Below, one piece after another: positions 3,101-47,600 of a stretch of DNA of 64,000 bases. The stretch lies in contig NC_086097.1 of assembly GCF_963921235.1 (NCBI RefSeq), positions 95,854,001 to 95,918,000 on the forward strand, written 5' to 3'. Position 1 is the first letter of the stretch; the number at the start of each line of letters is the position of its first letter. Both the position numbers and the translations under genes were made by a program. The notes under the pieces were generated by a model, which saw nothing but the letters and a program-made list of their open reading frames with translations, was not told the origin of the DNA and did no database searches. This DNA comes from Mobula hypostoma. Taxonomy: Eukaryota.

Positions 3101-3765
3101 CCTGACAGAGATGGGAAATGAAACTTTAAGGCAAATGTGGATGAAGTAATTGGGTTAAACTCATTTACTTGGGCATCAGCAGCCTTCTGTTATGATACTG
3201 ATGGCTATAGTTTCCAGTAGGACTGGACACAGCATGCTAGCAGGCTGCTTAACCATGGAGAGATTCCTAGCCTAGTCCACTCCTCTCTTTTTCAGATACT
3301 CTGAAAGTTAACAAAGGAAGCTTTGTTTTGAAAGTAGACATTTATTTCCCACTGAGACTGTGGATGCTCTTAGTCTGTGTGATGAATGTACTCCAAGAGT
3401 CAGATTAGGAAGCAAGCAGAGGTACTGACCAGAGACACTGAAGGTCATCATTGGTAGAACAGAATAAGTTAGGGACATGCCAGAGGTTCTGTATTTGATA
3501 TGGGGAAATGGAATATCCTAAAAAAAGTAAGATACAGTATATTGCTGGAGCTGTAACAAATTATGGAATTGATTTGAGTTCTGAAGGCTTGGAACAGGGG
3601 AGATAGAGATTGACTTTTTCCAATATATTGGAACAGCAAAGGGCTTTCAGAGGTTTGTAGGGCTGGAGGGTCTCCAGAGATAGAGAGGGACTGAAACCTG
3701 ACCTGAGAGTGAGGTAGAATTTCTCCTTTGCACTTATGAGGAAAACTTAAATAATTTCAAAATAA

Positions 3766-3966
3766 TGATGTACCGTATAGCCTACATTATAATAAGGGAC
3801 TACTTTATGTTGTCGTAACACATCGTTGAATGCGCTTTTGGTGTGTATTGATCTGTACGTGTGTGTTCAGTTCGGTTTCAGTCAGTAAAGAATCCTGTTA
3901 ACTTAGCTCCAGTCTCCAGCATTTTTATTTATAGCTTTGTTGTGTAACCCAGCCACATACACAACA
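3766..3966 (+). repeat. 5' LTR
   Basis: (TGA)TGTACCGTATAG...CATACACAACA; direct repeat of 7137-7334, roughly 88% identical by manual count; followed by AAT-TGGTGATGAG. Confidence 0.92.
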
Positions 3967-3969
3967 AAT

Positions 3970-3981
3970 TGGTGATGAGGT
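3970..3981 (+). promoter_or_regulatory. Primer binding site (PBS) of the LTR element
   Basis: TGGTGATGAGG starts 3 nt after the 5' LTR; TGG is complementary to the tRNA CCA end. Confidence 0.75.
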
Positions 3982-4311
3982 GAATGAACCTATGTCGTAT
4001 TGGAACGCCGTGTTTTAATTGATAACGACACTCGGAAGAAGAGCGCAAGGTACGAGCCAAGGCAGAGTGAGGCCGCGAGTCCGAAAGGAAACGGAAGCAC
4101 AGCTGCAGGTCGGGAACGTCGGGAGACCAAGAGTCACAGCACATCCAGCCGGCGCTGACCCCCAGGGTCTGAGGGTCTGCCTGCCCCAGGAGGCAGGTAA
4201 GAAGAAGTGACACACACATCTAGACGGAATGCGCTTGTGGCGCTAGCAAAAAGGATACTTGAGTCAAAAAGGAAAATAAGGGGAGAACGGGGCTTAATTA
4301 ACATAACAAAG

Positions 4312-5155
4312 ATGGCGATGATTGGAACTATTACAGCATTTAATAGTGACATTGAAGACTGGGCAACTTACATTGAAAGAGTGGAGTTATATTGTGAGGC
4401 TAATGGTGTTAATGATGAAAAGAAAGCCAGCGTCTTACTCAGTATTATGGGAGCAAAAACATACAGGCTGCTTCGGAGCTTGTTAACCCCTGAAAACCCA
4501 GCTGACAAACATTCAAGCAAATAGTAGACACTCTCCAACAGCATTTAAACCCCAAACCACTGGTCATTGCTGAAAGATTTAAATTTCACAATCTCAAAAA
4601 AATGAAAGCATTTCTGAATATTGCGCTGAATTGTGCAAATTATCAGAACATTGTCAATTTGGAGCTGGTCTATTGGACGCATTGAGGGACAGGTTAGTGT
4701 GTGGCATGCACTGTGAAACCAGACAGAAGAAGCTCCTGGGTGAAAAAAACCTTACATTAGAGAAGGTGCTGAGCATTGCAATATCAACGGAAACAGCCGC
4801 ACGAGGTGCTTCCAAGTTACAACAAAAATCTCTGGAATATGCTACAAATAAAATGTCACTGAACAGAAAGGAAGGAAAGGAATGTTACCGTTGTGGGAAC
4901 AGGTCACATGACCCAGGTGACTGTTGGTTTAAAGACAAAAAATGCAGAAACTGTGACAAACAGGGCCACATCGGCAGATTATGCAAAGCTGGTAAACAAC
5001 AGAAAAAGGACAAAATACAGAGAAACAAGAAACCCCAGAAAGGAAAATACAACAAGATGCACAAAATGAAAGAGGGCAGTTCTGATGAAAACGAATCTGA
5101 CAAAAATGAATTGTCTTGTCTGCAACTTCACAGCGTGAAAGAGACAGATGATTGA
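4312..5155 (+). pseudogene. gag: Gypsy gag (frameshifted)
   Basis: MAMIGTITAFNSDIEDWATYIERVELYCEANGV..., LRDRLVCG, and zinc knuckles CYRCGNRSHDPGDC and CRNCDKQGHIGRLC. Frameshifts near 4510 and 4600; in-frame TGA at 5153. Confidence 0.88.
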
Positions 5156-5490
5156 AGAGTAATATGGATCACTCCACAAGTGGTGGGCGTGAGACTGAAA
5201 ATGGAGTTGGACACAGGCTCAGCTTTAACAGTGATCTCTGTACATGACTACAAACGATTGTATTCGCACATACCTCTGAAACGAACAAAACTTCTACTAA
5301 GAACTTACACAGGACAGAAAGTGCATCCCGAAGGCAAGATTAAAGTGACAGTGACCTATGAAGATAAAACACAGCAACTGAACCTCTATGTACTGAAATA
5401 TGGAGGACCACCATTGCTGGGACATGAATGGCTCAGGAAAATCCAGATGGATTGGCACACCATCAAGGCACTAGATGTGTCAACAAAGGA
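5156..5490 (+). pseudogene. pol: Gypsy aspartic protease (N-terminus of pol), same frame as the end of gag
   Basis: [39 protein letters not shown] carries the retropepsin D-T-G and LLG motifs. Confidence 0.9.
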
Positions 5491-5509
5491 GGGCAGCTCG
5501 GCGGGGAAG

Positions 5510-6127
5510 ATGTCCGCAGCTCTCCTCTCACCCATTGTTGACTATTACAACAACGAGGAGGAGCTAGACAGCATCGACAGGGAGACAGATATTGCCAAAA
5601 AGCAGGATGATGAAGACTACCTGGAAGTAAAACAGCAGATGTACCAGGAGAAATTGACATCTCTCAAAAGACAGCTACAGCAGTTACAGGAAGGCACTTT
5701 GCAGGAGTATCAGAAAAGGATGAAGAAACTAGATCAACAATACAAGGAAAGAATATGAAATGCAGAGCTTTTTCAGCAACTGGAGATAGAACAAGTGGAA
5801 AGGAATTACATTAAAGAGAAGAAAGCAGCAATGAAGGAATTTGAAGATAAAAAGTTTGAGTTAGAAGGAAAGAAAAAGATGATTGAGAATGAGAGGCTAA
5901 GTATGGAACTCACAGGAGAGTCTGTGGAGGTAAAGCCAATAATGACTAGAAAATTGAGGAGGAGACCTAATGACCCTGTTCCAATTACAGACAAAAGATG
6001 AAAACCTGCACCTGTGCAGTTAAATTACTTGTTAACAGATGAAAAGATAAGGGAAGATCTGCGAACTCTCAATAAGCTTAAATCTCTGAAAGGACCAGCA
6101 TCTCCGTATTCTCCTGAACAATTTCCT
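5510..6127 (+). pseudogene. SUDS3: Processed (intronless), 3'-truncated copy of the Sin3 histone deacetylase corepressor component SUDS3, captured in the LTR element
   Basis: [124 protein letters not shown] matches vertebrate SUDS3 as I recall it. No introns; two TGA stops at Arg positions. Confidence 0.95.
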
Positions 6128-6919
6128 TGAGAAAGATCCATGAAAATTGGTCATCCCTTAAAAGCTCTTGGACAAAATCAATTCCATTCAAACAGAACAG
6201 CTTTCGCACAAGGTAAATCTTGAACCAGTCATTTCCTCCATTGAAAATCATACACTTAATCCTTTGCAGGGAAGTTTTTTTTGCACGTACATATTTTGAA
6301 TCCTCAGCCAATGTGTCTTGTTTTGCACAAAGAAGTTGGGAAACAGCATCAAAACAGAGGCGAATTCTGGCAACAAACTGTAAGGTTTCTATTGTTGTAT
6401 TTTCACACTCGTGCTGAATGTGCATCTGAAGGAATCCTCCCTCTTGAGCCAGGTAGGTACGCAATCTTCTCTTGCACTGTGCACAACTTCATACATAGAA
6501 TCCTCCAAACAATTCAGAAACAGTGCATAGAATTCAGTCTCATTTTCTTGACCAAGGTTTGTTTTGTGAACTTCAGACAGATAGCACTGCAGGTAATCCT
6601 TAATATCAGCAAAATTGTACTTTAGCAGCAGCTTAAGAACAATGGAATGAATAACTGGATTTCGATCAACTGCTTCTTCAAACAGTGAAAGATTACTGGT
6701 AAAGTACTGATCTTTCTGTGAGTCATTGGATTGCCCCGACTTTTGAATAACTAGCAGAGTCAGCAGATCACCAACCACTTCTTTTAGAAACTAAAGCTAC
6801 GAAAAATGCATCACACTTCTTGCGAAATATGACTAATTTTGCTACAGCTTCACTTATTTCTTCTGTTACCGCTGGTACATAATCATCACCTAGAGAAGTA
6901 CGGCATAGTGGGCAGAGTC
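6110..6919 (-). pseudogene. RNF213: Processed internal fragment of RNF213 (mysterin), end of the RING finger plus E3 module, antisense inside the LTR element
   Basis: Minus strand reads LCPLCRTSLGDDYVPAVTEEISEAVAKLVIFRKKCDAFFVALVS.., VDRNPVIHSIVLKLLLKYNFADIKDYLQCYL, FYALFLNCLEDS, TIETLQFVARIRLCFD and NDWFKIYLVRKL..WIF.KEIV. These are colinear with RNF213 as I recall it; frameshifts and deletions are present. Confidence 0.88.
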
Positions 6920-7123
6920 CCCCTCCAGAGACTTGAGTTATGAATGGGTCTTAGACCAAAAGTAAAAAAAAAGGCTTGTTATAATTGGATATTATTATGT
7001 TACTTTATAACTTGATATTATTCAGTTACTAAGTAAACACATGGTAGGCGTTTGTATGTTAGGGGTAAACATATTGGTTTAGCATAGTGCCCCAGTAAAA
7101 GAAAGTTGATACACTATTAAAAT

Positions 7124-7136
7124 AAAAGGGGAGGAG
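7124..7136 (+). promoter_or_regulatory. Polypurine tract
   Basis: AAAAGGGGAGGAG directly before the 3' LTR. Confidence 0.85.
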
Positions 7137-7334
7137 TGTACCGTATAGCCTACAGTATAATAAGGGACTACTTTATGTTGTAGTAACACATCGTTGAATG
7201 TGCTATTAGGCACGTATTGATCCGTGCGCGTGTGTTCAGTTCAGTTCAGTCAGTAAAGAACCCCGTTAACTTATCTCCCATCTCCAGCGTTTTTATTTAT
7301 AGCTCTGTTGTGTAATCTGGCCACATACACAACA
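7137..7334 (+). repeat. 3' LTR
   Basis: TGTACCGTATAG...CATACACAACA; direct repeat of the 5' LTR. Confidence 0.92.
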
Positions 7335-7457
7335 AATAACATCATACAATGGCACATAAAGGTGATCTATGCCCGGAATGAAGAAATTGTAAATACTGCT
7401 CAACACTGGGTCTGACTTCCCTGTAGTAATTTTTGCTCACTTCCTCTTTAGAGAATA

Positions 7458-7561
7458 ATGGACATGCTGGAGGAATTTGAGGAAGAGGAAGAACAGACTG
7501 AAGATGCAGGAGAGATCAAGAAGGGAAGACACATATCATTTGTCAATAAAGTTGATCACCT
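7458..7561 (+). CDS. DRC7: Dynein regulatory complex subunit 7 (CCDC135), putative first coding exon
   Basis: Acceptor ttcctctttAG (exon from 7452), ATG at 7458, MDMLEEFEEEEEQTEDAGEIKKGRHISFVNKVDH, donor GTAAGT at 7562. Phase 2 fits the next exon. Confidence 0.7.
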
Positions 7562-8389
7562 GTAAGTAAAATTTGCTTCTATTTAATAATTCTCCGAACG
7601 TGTTTGGAATTCATGATACCCAGAACATAAATGCCCAGCACAGGAGCTCTTTAAAAGAAAATCAGAAAAGAAATGTAGTTGGGGAAGGTAAAATAGAATA
7701 TTGGGCCTGTCAGAAACATCTTAAGACATCAATGAGGATATTGTATGGATTGTTGGTTCCACAGGGAAGTTATTAATCCTCTAGAGTGTACGATGCAGAT
7801 TCAGTACATACTGTATTCCTGACATAAAGAAATTAAATTTGCTGAAATATTTGGATTTTTGTTAAAATTGCAGCAATGTATTTAGAAGTATTCGCAATTC
7901 TGAAAGGATCAAATTGAGTAAATGGAAATTGACTTGTTTCCTTTATAAGAGAGCTTAGAACAAGGGAGACTATTAATACTAGATAAATATAGAAGATTTA
8001 AATGCAGGACAGAAACAGAATAAATGTTGTTCAGTGCTAGATTGGAATAACTGATGAATAAAACTGGGTGAAAGGTTCCAGCAATGAGATGAGTGAATTT
8101 TACATGCTACCAAGATTCACATTCTAAACCCTTGCTTGGAAAGGAAACTCAGGAATAGTAGCTCACTTGGTTTAAAGGAATACAGACTGGTTGCATTCAA
8201 TGCTCAGCTGCTTTTTCAGTGTGCATATATCTTTATAATTATTATTAATTGTCTGTATTGTCTGATCTGGTACAAGGAATTCTCAGAATTCTTTATCATT
8301 TCGACAAAGGAAGGTTACACTTCCATCACCAAAGTCTCATCTTCAAATGCAAAGTCTCCTCCATTTCCTCATTGTACAGAAAGCTCCAT

Positions 8390-17644: not shown

Positions 17645-20490
17645 ACTTTATCTAAATGCCCGTAGTATTAGAAATAAGGTTAGTGAACTTGTGGAACAGA
17701 TCAGTACCAAGGCATATGATTTAGTGGCCATTACAGAAACCTGGTTGCAAGGAGGAGATGACTGGGAATTAAATATCCAAGGGTATCAGGTAATACGGAA
17801 AGATAGGCAGGAAGGCAGAGGAGGTGGGGTGGCGCTCTTGATTAGGGATGAGATCAGAGTGATTGTGAGAGATGATATAAGATCTACAGAGTAGAATGTT
17901 GAGTCCATCTGGGTAGAGATGAAGAATAGTAAAGGGAAAAAATCACTGGTGGGCGTTGTCTATCGGCCGCCTAATAAAAATATTGCAGTGGCAGAGGCGA
18001 TTAACCAAGAAATAACTGAGGCTTGTAAGAACGGAACGGCAGTTGTCATGGGGGATTTTAACTTCCACGTAGATTGGGTGAATCAGGTTGGTCAAGGAAG
18101 TCTTGAGGACTTCATAGAATGCATCCGTGATGGCTTTCTTGAGCAGCGTGTTAGTGAACCTACAAGGGAAAATACTATCTTAGATCTAGTCCTGTGCAAT
18201 GAGACAGGTAAGATTAATGATCTTGTAGTCAGGGATTCTCTTGGTAAGAGTGATTATAGTATGATTGAATTTCGCATTCAGATGGGGGATGAAATAATTA
18301 GATCTAAAACTAGTGTATTATGCTTGAACAAGGGAAACTACAACAGGATGAGGGAGGAGTTGGCTAATGTGGATTGGGAGCACAGGCTATTTGGTAGGAC
18401 AGTTGAGGAACAGTGGAATACTTTCAAAGAGATTTTTCACAGTGCTCTACAAAAGTATATTCCAGTCAAAAGTAAGGACAGTAAGTGTGGGGTGAGCCAG
18501 CCTTGGATAACTAAGGAAATAAAAGATAGTATCAAATTAAAAGCTCATGTGTCGCAAAGAGTAGTGGGAGACTGGAGGATTGGGAAAACTTTAAAAAGCA
18601 GCAGAGAACAACTAAACAAGAAATAAGAAAAGGGAAGATAGAGTATGAAAGTAAATTAGCACAAAATATAAAAACAGATAGCAAAAGTTTTTATAAATAT
18701 GTAAAACGGAAGAGGGTGGCTAAAGTCAACGTAGGTCCCTAGGAAGATGAGAAGGGGAAATTGATATTGGGTGATAAGGAAATGGCTGAGGCATTGAACG
18801 ACTATTTTGTGTTGGGCTTCATGGTGGAGGACACGTCTAATATGCCAAAGAAATGGGAGGTGAGGACCTCGATAAAATCACTGTCACTAAAGAGATAGTG
18901 ATGAGTAAACTAGAGGGCCTGAAGGTAGATAAGTCCCCTGGTCCAGATGGAATGCATCCCAGGGTGCTGAAGGAATTGGCGGAGGTTATAGTGGACACCT
19001 TGGTAATCACTTATCAAAACTCTGTAGACTCTGGGCAGGTCCCGGTGGATTGGAAGACAGCAAATGTCACGCCACTTTTTAAAAAAGGATGTAGGCAGAA
19101 GACAGGCAACTATAGGCCAGTTCGCTTAACATTTGTAGTCGGGAAAATGCTTGAAGCTGGCATTAAGGAAGAAATAGCGAAACATTTAGAAGGGAGTGGT
19201 TCCATTAGACAGACGCAGCATGGATTCAGAAAGGACAGGTCCTGTTTGACAAACTTACTGGAGTTCTTTGAGGACATAATGAGTGCAGTGGATAGAGGGG
19301 AACAGGTGGATCTCGTATATTGGATTTCCAGAAGGCATTCGATAAGGTGCCGTACAAGAGACTTATAAATAAGATACGGATGCATGGAGTCGGAGGAAGT
19401 GTATTGGCATGGTTAGTGGATTGGTTAACTGATAGAAGGCAGACAGTTGGCAGTCTGTGGTGAGTGGGGTGCCGCAGGGGTCGGTGCTGGGCCCGCAGCT
19501 GTTTACCATTTACATTGATGATCTGGAAGAGGGGACTGAATATAGCGTAGCAAAATTTGCTGATGACACTAAACTGATTGGAAAAGCAAATTGTACAGAG
19601 GATGTGGAGAGTCTGCAGAGGGATGTAGATAGGTTAAGTGAGTGGGCCAAGGTCTGGGAGATGGAATGCAACGCTGGTAAATGTGAGATCATCCACTTTG
19701 GAAGGAATAATAGGAGGGCAGATTATTATTTAAATGCTGAAAGATTGCAGCATGCTGTTGTGCAGAGGGACTTGGGAGTGCTTGTGCATGAATCGCAAAA
19801 AGTTGGTTTGCAGGTACAACAGGTTATTAAGAAGGCAAACGGAATGTTGGCCTTCATTGCTAGAGGGATTGAATTCAAGAGCAGGGAGATAATGCTGCAA
19901 CTATACAGGGTACTGGTGAGGCCGCACCTAGAGTACTGTGTGCAGTTCTGGTCTCCATACTTGAGGAAGGACATATTGGCTTTGGAGGCAGTGCGGAGGA
20001 GGTTCACAAGGTTGATTCCAGGAATGAAGGGGTTAACCTGTGAGGAGAGATTGAGTCGCCTGGGACTATACTCTCTGGAGTTCAGAAGAATGAGAGGGGA
20101 TCTTATAGAAACCTACAAAATTTTGAAAGGGATAGATAAGATAGAAGTAAGGAAGTTGTTTCCATTGGTAGGTGAGACTAGAACTAGGGGACATTGCCTC
20201 AAGATTCGGGGAAGCAGGTTTAGGATGGAGATGAGGAGAAACTGTTTTTCCCAGAGAGTGGTGAATCTGTGGAATTCTCTGCCCAGGGAAGCAGTTGAGG
20301 CTTCTTCACTAAATATATTTAAGAAACAGTTAGATAGGTTTTTACATAATAAGGGAATTAAGGTTTATGGGGAAAAGGCAGGTAGATGGAGCTGAGTTTA
20401 CGGACAGATCAGCCATGATCTTATTGAATGGCAGGGCAGGCTCGATGGGCCAGATGGCCTACTCCTACTCCTATATCTTATGTTCTTATG
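17645..20490 (+). mobile_element. CR1 LINE ORF2 (APE endonuclease + RT), near complete with stops and frameshifts
   Basis: AITETWL, GVVYRPP, MGDFN, KSPGPDGMHPRVLKEL, GNYRPV, SGVPQGSVLGP, FADD; 3' tail tcttatgttcttatg. Confidence 0.95.
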
Positions 20491-44689: not shown

Positions 44690-47600
44690 GCTAGGTAAAA
44701 AACTGAAAAGCAGGACCTCCTGGTAGAAACCTATGGATTGCTGCCTGTGCCTTGTGCCAGTGAGGGTAGGATGGTGATTTAAGATTCCGATTTAAGATGG
44801 TGTTGGTGAAGCACAGTGATAACTTGCTGGTAGCAAAACGATATATTACTGTATTAATCACATTTTTTCACTGATACGATCACTGCAATCAATATCCTGT
44901 AACTTCCTTTTTGGAGTTGAGCTTTTGAACCACCTGTATGCCCTGGTGTTTTTGTGGTGTGAACCAAAGCTGCAGGACACTTGAGGAGAGGCATGTACGG
45001 GCTGAATTGAGGTGGCGGGTTCTGGGCCCGAGAATGGGGATTGAGCCAATGTTTGTCCTTTACTGGAGCAGACATGGAGGCGGGTCGATGTGGCTTAGCA
45101 GAGGCGAGGCAGAGTCAAGGAGGCAAGGCCCAGGAGGAAGGACAGGCAGATGATCGGGCAAAATTAAAGTCGGTGGGATGAGTTAAATTGTAACAGGGGA
45201 CCAGAATCAAAGAAGGATGAGGCATACAGGACTGAAGGAGTAATATTTAACTGTACATGGTATACTGAATTTAGGCAGATGATCTTGTGGCGCAGTTAGA
45301 GACTGGCAGGTATAATGTTGTGGGCATTGCTGAGTTGTGGCTAAAGAAGATCATAGGTGGGAGCTTAACATCCAAGGCTACATATTGTATCAAAAGGACA
45401 GGCAGGAAGGCAGAGATGGTGGGGAGGCTCTATTAGTTAAAAAATAAAATTGAATCTTCAGAAAAAGGTGACATAGGATTGGAAGATGTCAAATTCATGT
45501 TAAGAAATTGCAAGGGGAAAAAGACCATGGTGGGAATTATATACAAGCCTCGGAACAATAGCCGGGATATGGGTTATAAATTACAACAGGGGGTAGAAGA
45601 TGCTTGCGAAAAGGTCAATGTTGTGATAATCATGGGGGATTTCAATATGCAGGTAGATTGGGAACATCGGGTTGGTTCTCAACCCTAAGAGAGGAAATTT
45701 GCAGAAGGCCACAAAATGGCTTTTTAGAGGAGCTTATGGTTGAGCTCACTAGGAAAATGGATTGGTGTTATGTGATGACCCAGATTTGACCAGGGAGTTT
45801 AAGGCAAAGGAACTCTGAGGAGACAGTGATCATAATATGATAGAATTTGCTTTGCAGTTTGTGAAGGAGAAGCTAAAATTCTATGTATCTGTATTGCAGT
45901 CAATTAAAAGGAATTGCAGAGGTATGAGAGAGGAGCTGGCCAAAGTTGATTGAAAGGGGACACTAGCAGCAATGATGATAGAACAGCAATGGCTGGTGTT
46001 TCTGGGGGAAATTCTGATGGTGCAGGAAAGATACATCGAAAAGATGAAGAAGTATTCTAAAGGGAGGATGAGGCAATTATGGCTGATGAGGGAAGTCAAA
46101 GCAACATAAAAGCTAAAGCAGGGGCATATAATACATCAAAAATTATTGGGAAGTTAAAGGATTGGGAAGTTTTTAAAAACCAACAGAAGGCAATTTTGAA
46201 AAGCCGTAATAATGGAAAAGATGAAACATGAAGGTAAACTAGCCAACAGTATAAGAGGATACAAAATGTTTTCCCAGATATATAAATAGTAAAAGAAAGA
46301 CGAGAGTGGGTATTGGAAAGCTGGAAAATTACATTGGAGATGTCATCGTTGGGGACAAAGAAATAGCGGACGAACTGAATAAGTATTTTGCATCATTCTT
46401 CACTGTGGAAGATGTCAGCAGAATGCCAGAACTGTGAGAGTGTCAGGGGGCAGAAGTGAGTGTCATTGCTATTACTAAGGAGAAGGTACTTGGGAAGCTG
46501 AAGTCTGAAGGTAGACAAGTTGCCTGGACCATATGGACTACACTCCAGGGTTCTGAATAAGGTAGTTGAAGAGATTGTGGAGGTATTAGTAATGATCTTT
46601 CAAGAATCATTAGATTCTGTAATGGTTTCTGAGGACTGGAAAATTTCAAATGTTACATCACACTTTAAGAAGGAAGGGAGGCAGAAGAGAGGAAATTATA
46701 GGCCAGTTAGCCTGACTTCAGTGTTTGGAAAGATGTTGGAGTCTATTATTAAGAATGAACTTTCAGTGTACTTGGAGGCACATGATAAAAGAGGCCAAAG
46801 TCAGCATGGTTTCCTTAAGGGGAAATCTTGCCTAACAGATCTTTTGGAATACTTTGAGGAAACAACAAGCAGGTTAGACAAAAAAGAGTCAGTGGATGTT
46901 GTTTATTTCGGTTTTAAGAAAGTCTTTCATGAGGGCCCACCTATGAGGCTGCTTAACAAAGTAAGAGCCCATGGTATTACAAGAAAGGTGCTAGCATGGA
47001 AAAAAGATCGGCCGAGTTGCAGGAAGCAAAGTGTGGGAATAAAGGGGGTCTTTTCTGGTTGGCTGCTAATGACTAGTGGTGATCGCAGGGGTTGTTTTTG
47101 GGGTTGCTTCTTTTCATGTTCTAAGTCAATCATTTGGATGATGGCTTTGTGGCCAAGTTTGCAGACGATATGAAGATACAGTAGGTGGAGGGGCAGGGTA
47201 GTATTGGGGAAGCCAGGGTGTCTGCAGAAGGACAGATAATGGGGATGGGCAAACAACTAGCAGTTGGAACATAGTGTAGGGAAGTGTATGGTCGTGCACT
47301 TTGGCAGAAGGAATAAAGGCATAGACTATTTTCTAAATAGGGAGAAAATTCAAAATTCAGAGATGCAAAGGGACTTGGGAGTCCTGCTGCAGGATTCCCT
47401 GTAGGTTAACTTGCAAGTTGAGTTGGTGGTAAGGAAAGCAAATGCAATGTTAACATTCATTTTGTGAGGACTAGAATACAAAATCAAGGATGTAATGCTG
47501 AGGCTTTATAAGGCATTGCTCTGTCCCTGCTTGGAGTATTGTGAGCAGTTTTGGGTCTCCTGTTTAAGAAAAGATGTGCTGGCATTGGAGAGGGTCCAGA

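Follow-up and report, generated by a model that had tools for sequence, protein, structure and literature searches.

A non-autonomous Gypsy element of Mobula hypostoma with sense SUDS3 and antisense RNF213 cDNAs in place of its replication genes

Positions 3769-7334 of the window (the whole 64,000-nucleotide stretch of DNA analyzed here) are a decayed single insertion of a non-autonomous Ty3/Gypsy LTR element, in which the slot for reverse transcriptase (RT), RNase H, and integrase is taken by a sense SUDS3 cDNA and then an antisense RNF213 cDNA. The Gypsy parts that have been kept are the two LTRs, gag, protease, the last pol codons, and a polypurine tract. The insertion is an old, dead copy of its family in the ray genome, and we consider it very likely that this family arose through two captures of host sequence, spread in trans, and later gave rise to deletion forms. 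The order LTR, gag, protease, SUDS3, RNF213, pol tail, LTR, which had been proposed in an earlier note made from the sequence alone, is borne out by the repeats, Pfam matches, homology, and collinear relatives.

Anatomy of the window copy

The features of the insertion, with strand in parentheses where one applies, are as follows.

3764..3768 (+): 5' target-site duplication AATGA, four of five bases as in AATAA at 7335-7339
3769..3966 (+): 5' LTR, 198 bp, TG...CA, direct repeat of 7137-7334
3970..3987 (+): candidate primer-binding-site-like sequence TGGTGATGAGG..., read from the sequence, its TGG... lying 3 nt past the 5' LTR
4312..5155 (+): gag with CCHC knuckle, decayed; ATG at 4312, frameshifts, TGA at 5153-5155 (list of open reading frames)
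5156..5497 (+): aspartic protease with its linker, ending at the breakpoint; Pfam gag-asp_proteas, E 1.2e-5, just below the cut-off
5491..5497 (+): junction 1 microhomology GGGCAGC between element and SUDS3 5'UTR; the autonomous element matches to 5497, the host SUDS3 mRNA contig from 5491
5498..6120 (+): SUDS3 cDNA, in frame with the protease; 12 nt of 5'UTR, ATG at 5510, codons to about 233
6110..6116: junction 2 microhomology CTCCTGA between SUDS3 and antisense RNF213; the SUDS3 mRNA contig matches to 6120, the RNF213 mRNA contig from 6110
6110..6917 (-): RNF213 cDNA fragment, covering about 290 aa downstream of the RING, whose end (CPLC) it includes; mouse residues ~3977-4265
6911..6917: junction 3 microhomology GGCAGAG between antisense RNF213 and the pol tail, a deletion join, from comparison with the copy L068 and SUDS3-only copies
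6918..6943 (+): last pol codons ..PLQRLEL, stop at 6941-6943 (PLQRLEL* is 6920-6943)
6944..7136 (+): 3' untranslated region; the polypurine tract AAAAGGGGAGGAG at its end adjoins the 3' LTR; read from the sequence and present in other copies
7137..7334 (+): 3' LTR, 198 bp, direct repeat of 3769-3966
7335..7339 (+): 3' target-site duplication AATAA, 5 bp, one mismatch versus AATGA

The two LTRs are 88.4% identical over 199 columns (K2P 0.117), and a repeat finder returns the pair as two collinear blocks of 94% and 89% identity. The candidate target duplication AATAA stands on the 3' side, but its 5' counterpart is AATGA. The window also contains LINE fragments.

Gag and protease are 54-61% identical to Gypsy K02A2.6-like polyproteins of about 1310 aa, which have PR, RVT_1, RNase H, and rve domains. 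The zf-CCHC match of gag (E 0.011) falls under the Pfam cut-off, and the protease at 5156-5485 is 63% identical to that of P0164, a 1311-aa fish Gypsy polyprotein. Neither the open reading frame list nor Pfam shows RT, RNase H, or integrase (expected in the order PR-RT-RH-IN) anywhere in 3769-7334, and the last pol codons alone are left. That PLQRLEL* is the end of pol, as the earlier note had it, is confirmed by an autonomous copy of the same genome (L073), whose pol terminates ...RRYPERQRRPPQRLEL*; P0164 terminates APPKRLDL. The list of open reading frames is empty from the pol stop (6943) to the polypurine tract, and related Gypsy polyproteins have no env domain in precomputed Pfam lists.

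The Pfam Sds3 match lies in the protease reading frame. The SUDS3 cargo shares 78% identity with a sawfish SDS3 protein over 207 aa and is a sense cDNA, as the earlier note described; its start, placed there at about 5492, is corrected to a breakpoint at 5497|5498 with the ATG at 5510. In the window copy it is interrupted by stops at 5756-5758 and 5999-6001, and 57 bp are missing at 5578/5579. The RNF213 cargo, reported before as antisense at about 6110-6919, is indeed antisense, with measured limits of 6110..6917. It is frameshifted, 33 bp are missing at 6785/6786, and its three frame pieces match RNF213 chains of the PDB with phmmer E values of 7.5e-24, 2.2e-12, and 3.3e-6.

The RNF213 cargo derives from a spliced transcript, and the SUDS3 cargo probably does too. 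For RNF213, two parental exons with GT-AG borders lie 8.7 kb apart on another contig (C68:48819751-847 and 48828541-651) and are exactly joined in the element, so that the cDNA origin suspected earlier holds at an exon-exon joint; this comparison covers these two exons and one long-insert copy (L068). Identity of the exons is 92-93% with the window copy and 96-98% with L068. The parental gene was placed with a 500-aa stretch of an RNF213 relative, one of those found in a representative protein search at 39-50% identity only; a word search over proteins of up to 2000 aa returned no full-length orthologues. The SUDS3 cargo is collinear with both the full protein and a host mRNA contig, which points to a spliced origin. 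In contigs of a probable RNA run, host transcripts of SUDS3 and RNF213 follow the cargo collinearly and extend past its ends. When the genome was searched with ray SDS3 and its last 60 residues for the parental SUDS3 gene, only element copies were matched. A peptide peculiar to one SDS3 isoform of a stingray (P0008) could not serve as a probe, since it matches a very abundant repeat (266,965 candidates).

A repeat family and its autonomous relatives

Copies were counted as 40-mer matches in this genome at up to three mismatches, and all counts are lower bounds. The protease end has at least 483 matches; the protease/SUDS3 junction has at least 235, the SUDS3/RNF213 junction at least 24, and the right junction of the RNF213 insert at least 28, each of the three with 0 matches for its control. 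In nine complete copies, which include both SUDS3-only and RNF213-bearing forms, the 5-bp target duplications are all different, five of them perfect and four with one mismatch; a tenth LTR pairing (L037) was left out because it had been mispaired with a neighboring LTR, and the LTR alignment of L019 spans 67 nt only. Since the junctions recur in copies with target duplications of their own, a one-off event or assembly artifact is ruled out, and what the earlier note had offered as a guess, that the chimera constitutes a family, proves correct. The classified RNF213-bearing loci were picked by their likeness to the window copy, which biases the share of window-type copies among them. Contigs that bridge junction 1 or junction 3 are also present in runs of other coded organisms (A, B, and G), and two probable RNA runs contain element-like contigs, which could reflect DNA carry-over.

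The earlier note proposed to look for an autonomous Gypsy with the same LTR; the genome does contain an autonomous partner with the protease end and pol tail of the chimera. Two of its copies (L071 and L072) follow the chimera collinearly as far as 5497 and then encode an RT that is 72-74% identical to that of P0164; the autonomous pol tail is as in the chimera. Because RT, RNase H, and integrase are missing from the window copy and present in these relatives, the element is a non-autonomous derivative.

The SUDS3 cargo is abundant. A search of the genome with a ray SDS3 protein gave 1706 first-look candidates, of which 122 were scored; all 125 of the listed matches are intronless, and 4 of these 125 are full-length and stop-free, whereas typical copies have one to four stops. 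SUDS3-only copies hold the whole coding sequence and 3'UTR, and in them the 3'UTR meets the pol tail without an A-run. In another copy of the family, a single frame stays open for 485 codons from the gag ATG through the protease into SUDS3, and a Mobula hypostoma "SDS3-like" protein includes the 21-residue junction peptide.

Probable history of the captures and possible role of the cargo

All three junctions have 7-nt microhomologies, a pattern as in template switching. The copies point to the following series of events as the very likely origin of the family. An autonomous Gypsy with a single gag-protease-RT-RNaseH-integrase polyprotein, of the K02A2.6-like type, would have co-packaged spliced SUDS3 mRNA. 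Two microhomology-guided template switches, probably during reverse transcription, would then have replaced the stretch from the protease linker to the last ~15 pol codons with the full SUDS3 coding sequence, a first capture that would have given one Gag-protease-SDS3 reading frame. The chimera, with its LTRs, primer site, gag, protease, and polypurine tract, would have been copied in trans into hundreds of sites by autonomous relatives, a route to which the ends that they share point. In one lineage, a second capture would have placed ~1.25 kb of spliced RNF213, copied antisense, into SUDS3 near codon 233, with a 22-25-nt SUDS3 duplication flanking the insert on both sides. Derivatives with extra deletions would have multiplied as well.

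The window copy is such a deletion derivative of a longer double chimera. In L068, antisense RNF213 runs on past GGCAGAG into the RING (Pfam zf-C3HC4, E 2.8e-9), after which SUDS3 resumes, and the pol tail of SUDS3-only copies contains GAGAGGCAGAGAAGACC. Loss of the sequence between two GGCAGAG repeats removed the RING part of RNF213 together with the C-terminus and 3'UTR of SUDS3; L041 is a further deletion form. That both cargoes came in together, in a single event, is not supported: RNF213 went into SUDS3 second, and the window form is a later deletion.

Two routes could have brought in the second cargo. Antisense capture in the particle requires an extra step that we have to assume, either a switch onto first-strand RNF213 cDNA or a switch during plus-strand synthesis. 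Alternatively, RNF213 could have entered a chromosomal master copy as a cDNA fragment during double-strand break repair. The antisense orientation, the position of the fragment within the mRNA, the microhomologies at both ends, and the short 22-25-nt flanking duplication would all suit such an entry, and filler-DNA capture at a break in a master copy would leave identical microhomologies. However, copy-choice by reverse transcriptase, a documented route for such chimeras (Tan et al. 2016, PMC5131818), would account for these features too, and our data do not separate the two; we regard break repair as unlikely, though worth serious consideration. Far harder to sustain is the idea that the cargoes are processed pseudogenes that LINEs inserted into an LTR element already dead, or that the assembly is chimeric; no observation was found in its favor, although LINE fragments do occur in the window. 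Neither cargo end in the window copy has an A-run or poly(A), and the RNF213 piece comes from within the coding sequence and lacks the mRNA 3' end. The earlier note had itself raised both an assembly chimera and cargo bounded by its own poly(A) or target duplication. The latter is not seen, the duplications lying outside the LTRs, and the former is contradicted by junctions common to at least 24 to at least 235 copies and by independent contigs from other organisms' runs that span them, so that we hold this explanation to be extremely improbable.

It is also conceivable, but in our judgment improbable, that the cargo was functional and that the Gag-protease-SDS3 fusion, and later antisense RNF213 transcripts, aided the element. 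Functional cargo might, for example, disturb Sin3/HDAC silencing or an antiviral E3 ligase, which would explain the extensive multiplication. The SUDS3 cargo continues the protease frame, and in the master lineage a single frame was open through gag, protease, and SUDS3; an in-frame fusion, however, has a one in three chance of arising. The few intact copies among the listed matches could be taken as support, but the stops in typical copies speak against it. In a SUDS3 tree of 21 copies, the ratio of changes at codon positions 1+2 versus 3 is 0.40 on internal and 0.96 on terminal branches, and the gag-protease control gives 0.27 and 0.87, but the sums over the internal branches are very small (0.026 and 0.065). 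The branch-ratio test also disagrees with a count of variable SUDS3 sites by codon position, where shared sites (49, 31, 42) show no bias relative to private sites (105, 91, 101; Fisher p = 1.0). Finally, derivatives in which the C-terminal third of SDS3 is lost or displaced are still present at dozens of copies. The same observation tells against the idea that the cargoes were picked because they come from host control or defense genes, as RNF213-bearing derivatives without the SDS3 C-terminus multiplied anyway. The branch-ratio test, the variable-site counts, and the listed copies thus hold no solid evidence of cargo function, and the cargo was probably a passenger. Were it not neutral, this Gypsy lineage would be one that repeatedly picks up host regulators in rays. 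In one such scenario, which we think quite improbable, Gag-protease-SDS3 blunted silencing by bringing a Sin3/HDAC-complex subunit into or near particles or chromatin, and the later antisense RNF213 version supplied small or antisense RNAs directed at an antiviral E3 ligase; a defective element could in that way reach hundreds of copies beside its helper.

Relation to known systems

With two template-switch captures and spread in trans as the favored history, the family is a clear example, from a vertebrate, of an LTR element with captured host mRNAs that became a large repeat family, through two successive captures whose intermediates are still in the genome. In the retrieved parts of the literature on SUDS3 and retrotransposons, RNF213 and LTR retrotransposons, and elasmobranch retrocopies and LTRs, the element is undescribed.

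In acutely transducing retroviruses (v-onc capture), host cDNA replaces replication genes by non-homologous recombination during reverse transcription. The ray element resembles them in having host cDNA in place of replication genes, a Gag-fusion frame, and probable helper dependence. Unlike them, it has neither env nor any sign of infectivity, with 175 bp from the pol stop to the polypurine tract, and it has spread in the germline as a transposon family without a demonstrated selected function of its cargo.

The process is LTR-mediated retroposition as outlined by Tan et al. (2016, PMC5131818), and the present case is notable mainly for its scale and for the second, antisense capture. As in the retrocopies described there, a spliced host mRNA replaces an internal part of the open reading frame between two LTRs, there is no poly(A), and the switch points have microsimilarity (median 6 bp there, 7 nt at three junctions here); chimeras of two or more genes and re-mobilization as non-autonomous elements are likewise reported. 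In contrast to the cases quoted in that paper, which have a handful of copies, at least 235 copies here have one junction, a second, sequential capture lies antisense inside the first cargo, several deletion subfamilies have spread, and the host is a cartilaginous fish. Bs1 of maize, as cited by Tan et al. (PMC5131818), is a plant element with one to five copies and its cargo pieces in one hybrid frame, whereas the second cargo of the ray element is antisense.

A survey that places SUDS3 among the top retrocopy parents in cartilaginous fishes (bioRxiv 10.64898/2026.06.26.734816) shares with our analysis the excess of intronless SUDS3 copies; other top parents reported for these fishes include MIPOL1, SDF2L1, SLU7, and ZNF276. 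SUDS3 stands so high among these "retrocopy" parents, and ray "SDS3-like" genes are so many, because the gene is transposon cargo; such genes are not independent LINE-made retrogenes under selective retention, and retrocopy censuses and gene counts in such genomes must check for LTR flanks. In the portion of the survey available to us, retrocopy numbers are tied to non-LTR elements and selective retention, whereas here they reflect the amplified cargo of a Gypsy element.

Anatomy of the element

The architecture that the earlier note had read from sequence (LTRs, gag, protease, SUDS3, antisense RNF213, pol end and polypurine tract) is correct, because its ordered parts were confirmed by repeat finding, Pfam and phmmer searches and a comparison of pol ends.

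Principal features of the window element
3769-3966 and 7137-7334, LTRs, 198-bp direct repeats with TG...CA ends (repeat finding)
3' of the 5' LTR, primer-site-like stretch, TGG... (read from sequence)
4312, ATG of gag, which frameshifts and a TGA (5153-5155) disrupt in the window copy (ORF list)
about 6110-6917, minus strand, RNF213 fragment in three shifted frames, from the RING end to about 290 residues downstream
adjoining the 3' LTR, polypurine tract (read from sequence)

The LTR pair is 88.4% identical (K2P 0.117) and is bordered at its outer ends by AATGA and AATAA. An aspartic protease lies 3' of gag (Pfam E 1.2e-5, slightly below the cut-off) and shares 63% identity with the protease of P0164, a 1311-aa fish Gypsy polyprotein. 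The SUDS3 coding sequence continues the protease reading frame, gives a Pfam Sds3 match, is 78% identical to sawfish SDS3 over 207 aa and contains two stops of the CGA-to-TGA type. Searched with phmmer against solved RNF213 chains, the three RNF213 frame pieces gave E values of 3.3e-6, 7.5e-24 and 2.2e-12. The PLQRLEL-stop directly after them is a genuine pol C-terminus; the corresponding end is RRYPERQRRPPQRLEL-stop in an autonomous copy of the same genome and APPKRLDL in P0164.

Just 3' of the element, an acidic open frame (MDMLEEFEEEEEQTEDAGEIKK...) at window 7459-7563 ends at GTAAGT; it has no Pfam match and looks like a host exon. LINE fragments are also present: window 17895-20395 holds Exo_endo_phos_2 endonuclease and RVT_1 ORFs, and 46502-47173 a further RVT_1 ORF.

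Recurrence, age and distribution of the family

The proposal that such chimeras form a family is borne out by genome-wide searches of the 3.48-Gb assembly containing the window, in which 40-mer probes were matched with at most three mismatches and reversed patterns served as controls. The protease end gave at least 483 matches, the protease/SUDS3 junction at least 235 and the SUDS3/RNF213 junction at least 24, against 0 for each control. A ray SDS3 protein query yielded 1706 first-look candidates, 122 of them scored; introns are absent from all 125 SUDS3 matches listed, most of which span residues 1-327 at 69-93% identity. With the RNF213 part as query there were 150 DNA candidates, and all 40 that were scored are element-like (83-95% identity).

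Ten LTR pairings were made in fetched loci; one was mispaired and left out, and the rest delimit nine complete elements, each 3.0-3.75 kb long. Their 5-bp target duplications, present in SUDS3-only as well as RNF213-bearing copies, are perfect in five and have one mismatch in four, and all nine differ. LTR divergence is K2P 0.06-0.15, with one alignment limited to 67 nt. The differing duplications and the LTR divergence thus indicate that the copies are separate, old integrations, which would be tens of millions of years old on the assumption of ~1e-9 neutral substitutions per site per year.

Contigs in sequencing runs of three organisms bridge the protease/SUDS3 or the RNF213/pol-tail junction. 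In public annotation, "SDS3-like" proteins of Mobula show the family marks (loss of KENLIAEL, PITDKR and KGQAI), and one contains the protease/SUDS3 junction peptide. A 2026 preprint (bioRxiv 10.64898/2026.06.26.734816) ranks SUDS3 with the leading parents of retrocopies in cartilaginous fishes, and the Gypsy-SUDS3 family probably explains this high rank. A consensus 5' splice site, CAG/GTAAGA, occurs at window 4194-4202, in the leader that separates the 5' LTR from gag. In P0003, a Mobula hypostoma "SDS3-like" gene model, a leader-like peptide leads straight into the protease end and then SDS3, a structure that might stem from splicing to a subgenomic RNA or from a copy that has lost gag. Separately, the extra 48 aa at residues ~38-85 of P0008, a stingray SDS3 isoform, gave 266,965 first-look genome candidates (66-89% identity), and since it matches so abundant a repeat, this segment is probably an exonised transposon piece.

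Parents of the cargo and derived forms

The RT part of P0164 matches many Gypsy copies in the genome, with 58-77% identity; several of these adjoin protease-end 40-mer matches directly on the downstream side. Two copies of this autonomous partner that we read are collinear with the chimera to window 5497 (...AAAGGAGGGCAGC), beyond which they enter RT (SKATSERLSQILADSEEVF...) and the chimera goes through TCGGCGGGGAAG-ATG into SUDS3. A host SUDS3 transcript is carried by a contig of a probable RNA run from a related organism; its match to the window begins at 5491, downstream of an unrelated GC-rich leader, so that GGGCAGC is common to both parents. This contig holds 57 nt missing from the window copy. 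It also holds, as do host SDS3 proteins, the 24 nt (KENLIAEL) at window 5856 that are missing from all family copies; the mRNA taken up was probably a product of alternative splicing. In one copy an open frame of 485 codons begins at the gag ATG, passes through protease and enters SUDS3; Gag, protease and SDS3 were thus encoded as one frame in the founder.

SUDS3-only copies contain the complete coding sequence, to RRRSAA-stop, with no poly(A) at the SUDS3 3' end. Their 3' junction takes two forms, one with ~150 nt of 3'UTR followed by the last ~15 pol codons (TTGACAGAC joined to GTTACCTGGAGAGGCAGAGAAGACC), the other with ~210 nt of extra 3'UTR and a join closer to the pol end. Loci L008, L015 and L016 have the long 3'UTR and short pol tail, and L010, L012 and L018-L020 the short 3'UTR and longer pol tail; a single deletion derives neither form from the other, which suggests that a further recombination took place, with either SUDS3 mRNA or the helper element.

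A distant RNF213 protein detected two RNF213-like genes on contig 68. The parental one, near 48.82 Mb, has a 97-bp and a 111-bp exon that are bordered by GT-AG and separated by 8.7 kb; in the element the two are directly joined, confirming the exon-exon joint expected of a cDNA. Identity of these exons is 92-93% with the window copy and 96-98% with L068, a copy with a longer RNF213 insert. The second gene (G000:C68:41303714-41309968) is 7.5 Mb away. Contigs with host RNF213 transcripts align collinearly to window 6110-6785 and 6787-6916 and extend past both ends; by comparison, the window copy lacks 33 nt at 6785/6786. As the SUDS3 contig extends to 6120 and the RNF213 contig begins at 6110, the overlap at their junction is CTCCTGA.

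RNF213 was acquired in a second capture, after that of SUDS3. L068 reads SUDS3 N-part, antisense RNF213, resumed SUDS3 with its C-terminus and 3'UTR, pol tail, LTR. Its RNF213 spans the complete RING (zf-C3HC4, E 2.8e-9) plus ~65 residues further upstream, and its SUDS3 restarts 22-25 nt ahead of the left-junction break point of window-type copies; the right junction of the insert has at least 28 genome matches. Relative to the window copy, L068 has deletions of 81 bp and 121 bp; the window copy lacks everything from a GGCAGAG in RNF213 to a GGCAGAG in the pol tail; and another copy, L041, retains 165 bp more than the window copy and is joined at a different point. These distinct deletions imply that all forms stem from one longer ancestor. 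The RING part is absent from 33 of 35 distinct RNF213-bearing loci, a share biased by their having been picked for likeness to the window.

Role of the cargo and mechanism of capture

On trees of 21 SUDS3 and 29 gag-protease sequences, we set the amount of change at codon positions 1+2 against that at position 3 (p12/p3). On terminal branches the ratio is 0.96 for SUDS3 and 0.87 for gag-protease, and thus change there is about equal at all codon positions. Usefulness of the cargo to the element, which we consider very improbable, would accord with the apparent constraint on internal branches (0.40 for SUDS3, 0.27 for gag-protease), but the internal sums are very small. Against it, shared and private variable sites of SUDS3 show no codon-position bias (p = 1.0; gag-protease shows only a weak trend, p = 0.07), and derivatives missing the SDS3 C-terminus likewise spread. 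We read the cargo as a passenger. For its antisense RNF213 part, the template switch would have had to be onto first-strand cDNA of RNF213 or to occur in plus-strand synthesis; uptake of a piece of RNF213 cDNA by a master copy while a break in it was repaired seems to us a less likely route.

The features of the chimera match LTR-mediated retroposition by template switching, as described by Tan et al. 2016 (PMC5131818). Shared with the chimeras described there are the replacement of internal element sequence with retention of both LTRs, microhomology at the junctions (here 7 nt at all three), the absence of poly(A) and re-mobilisation of the chimera; that study also reports chimeras of several genes and a small number of copies that had been mobilised again.
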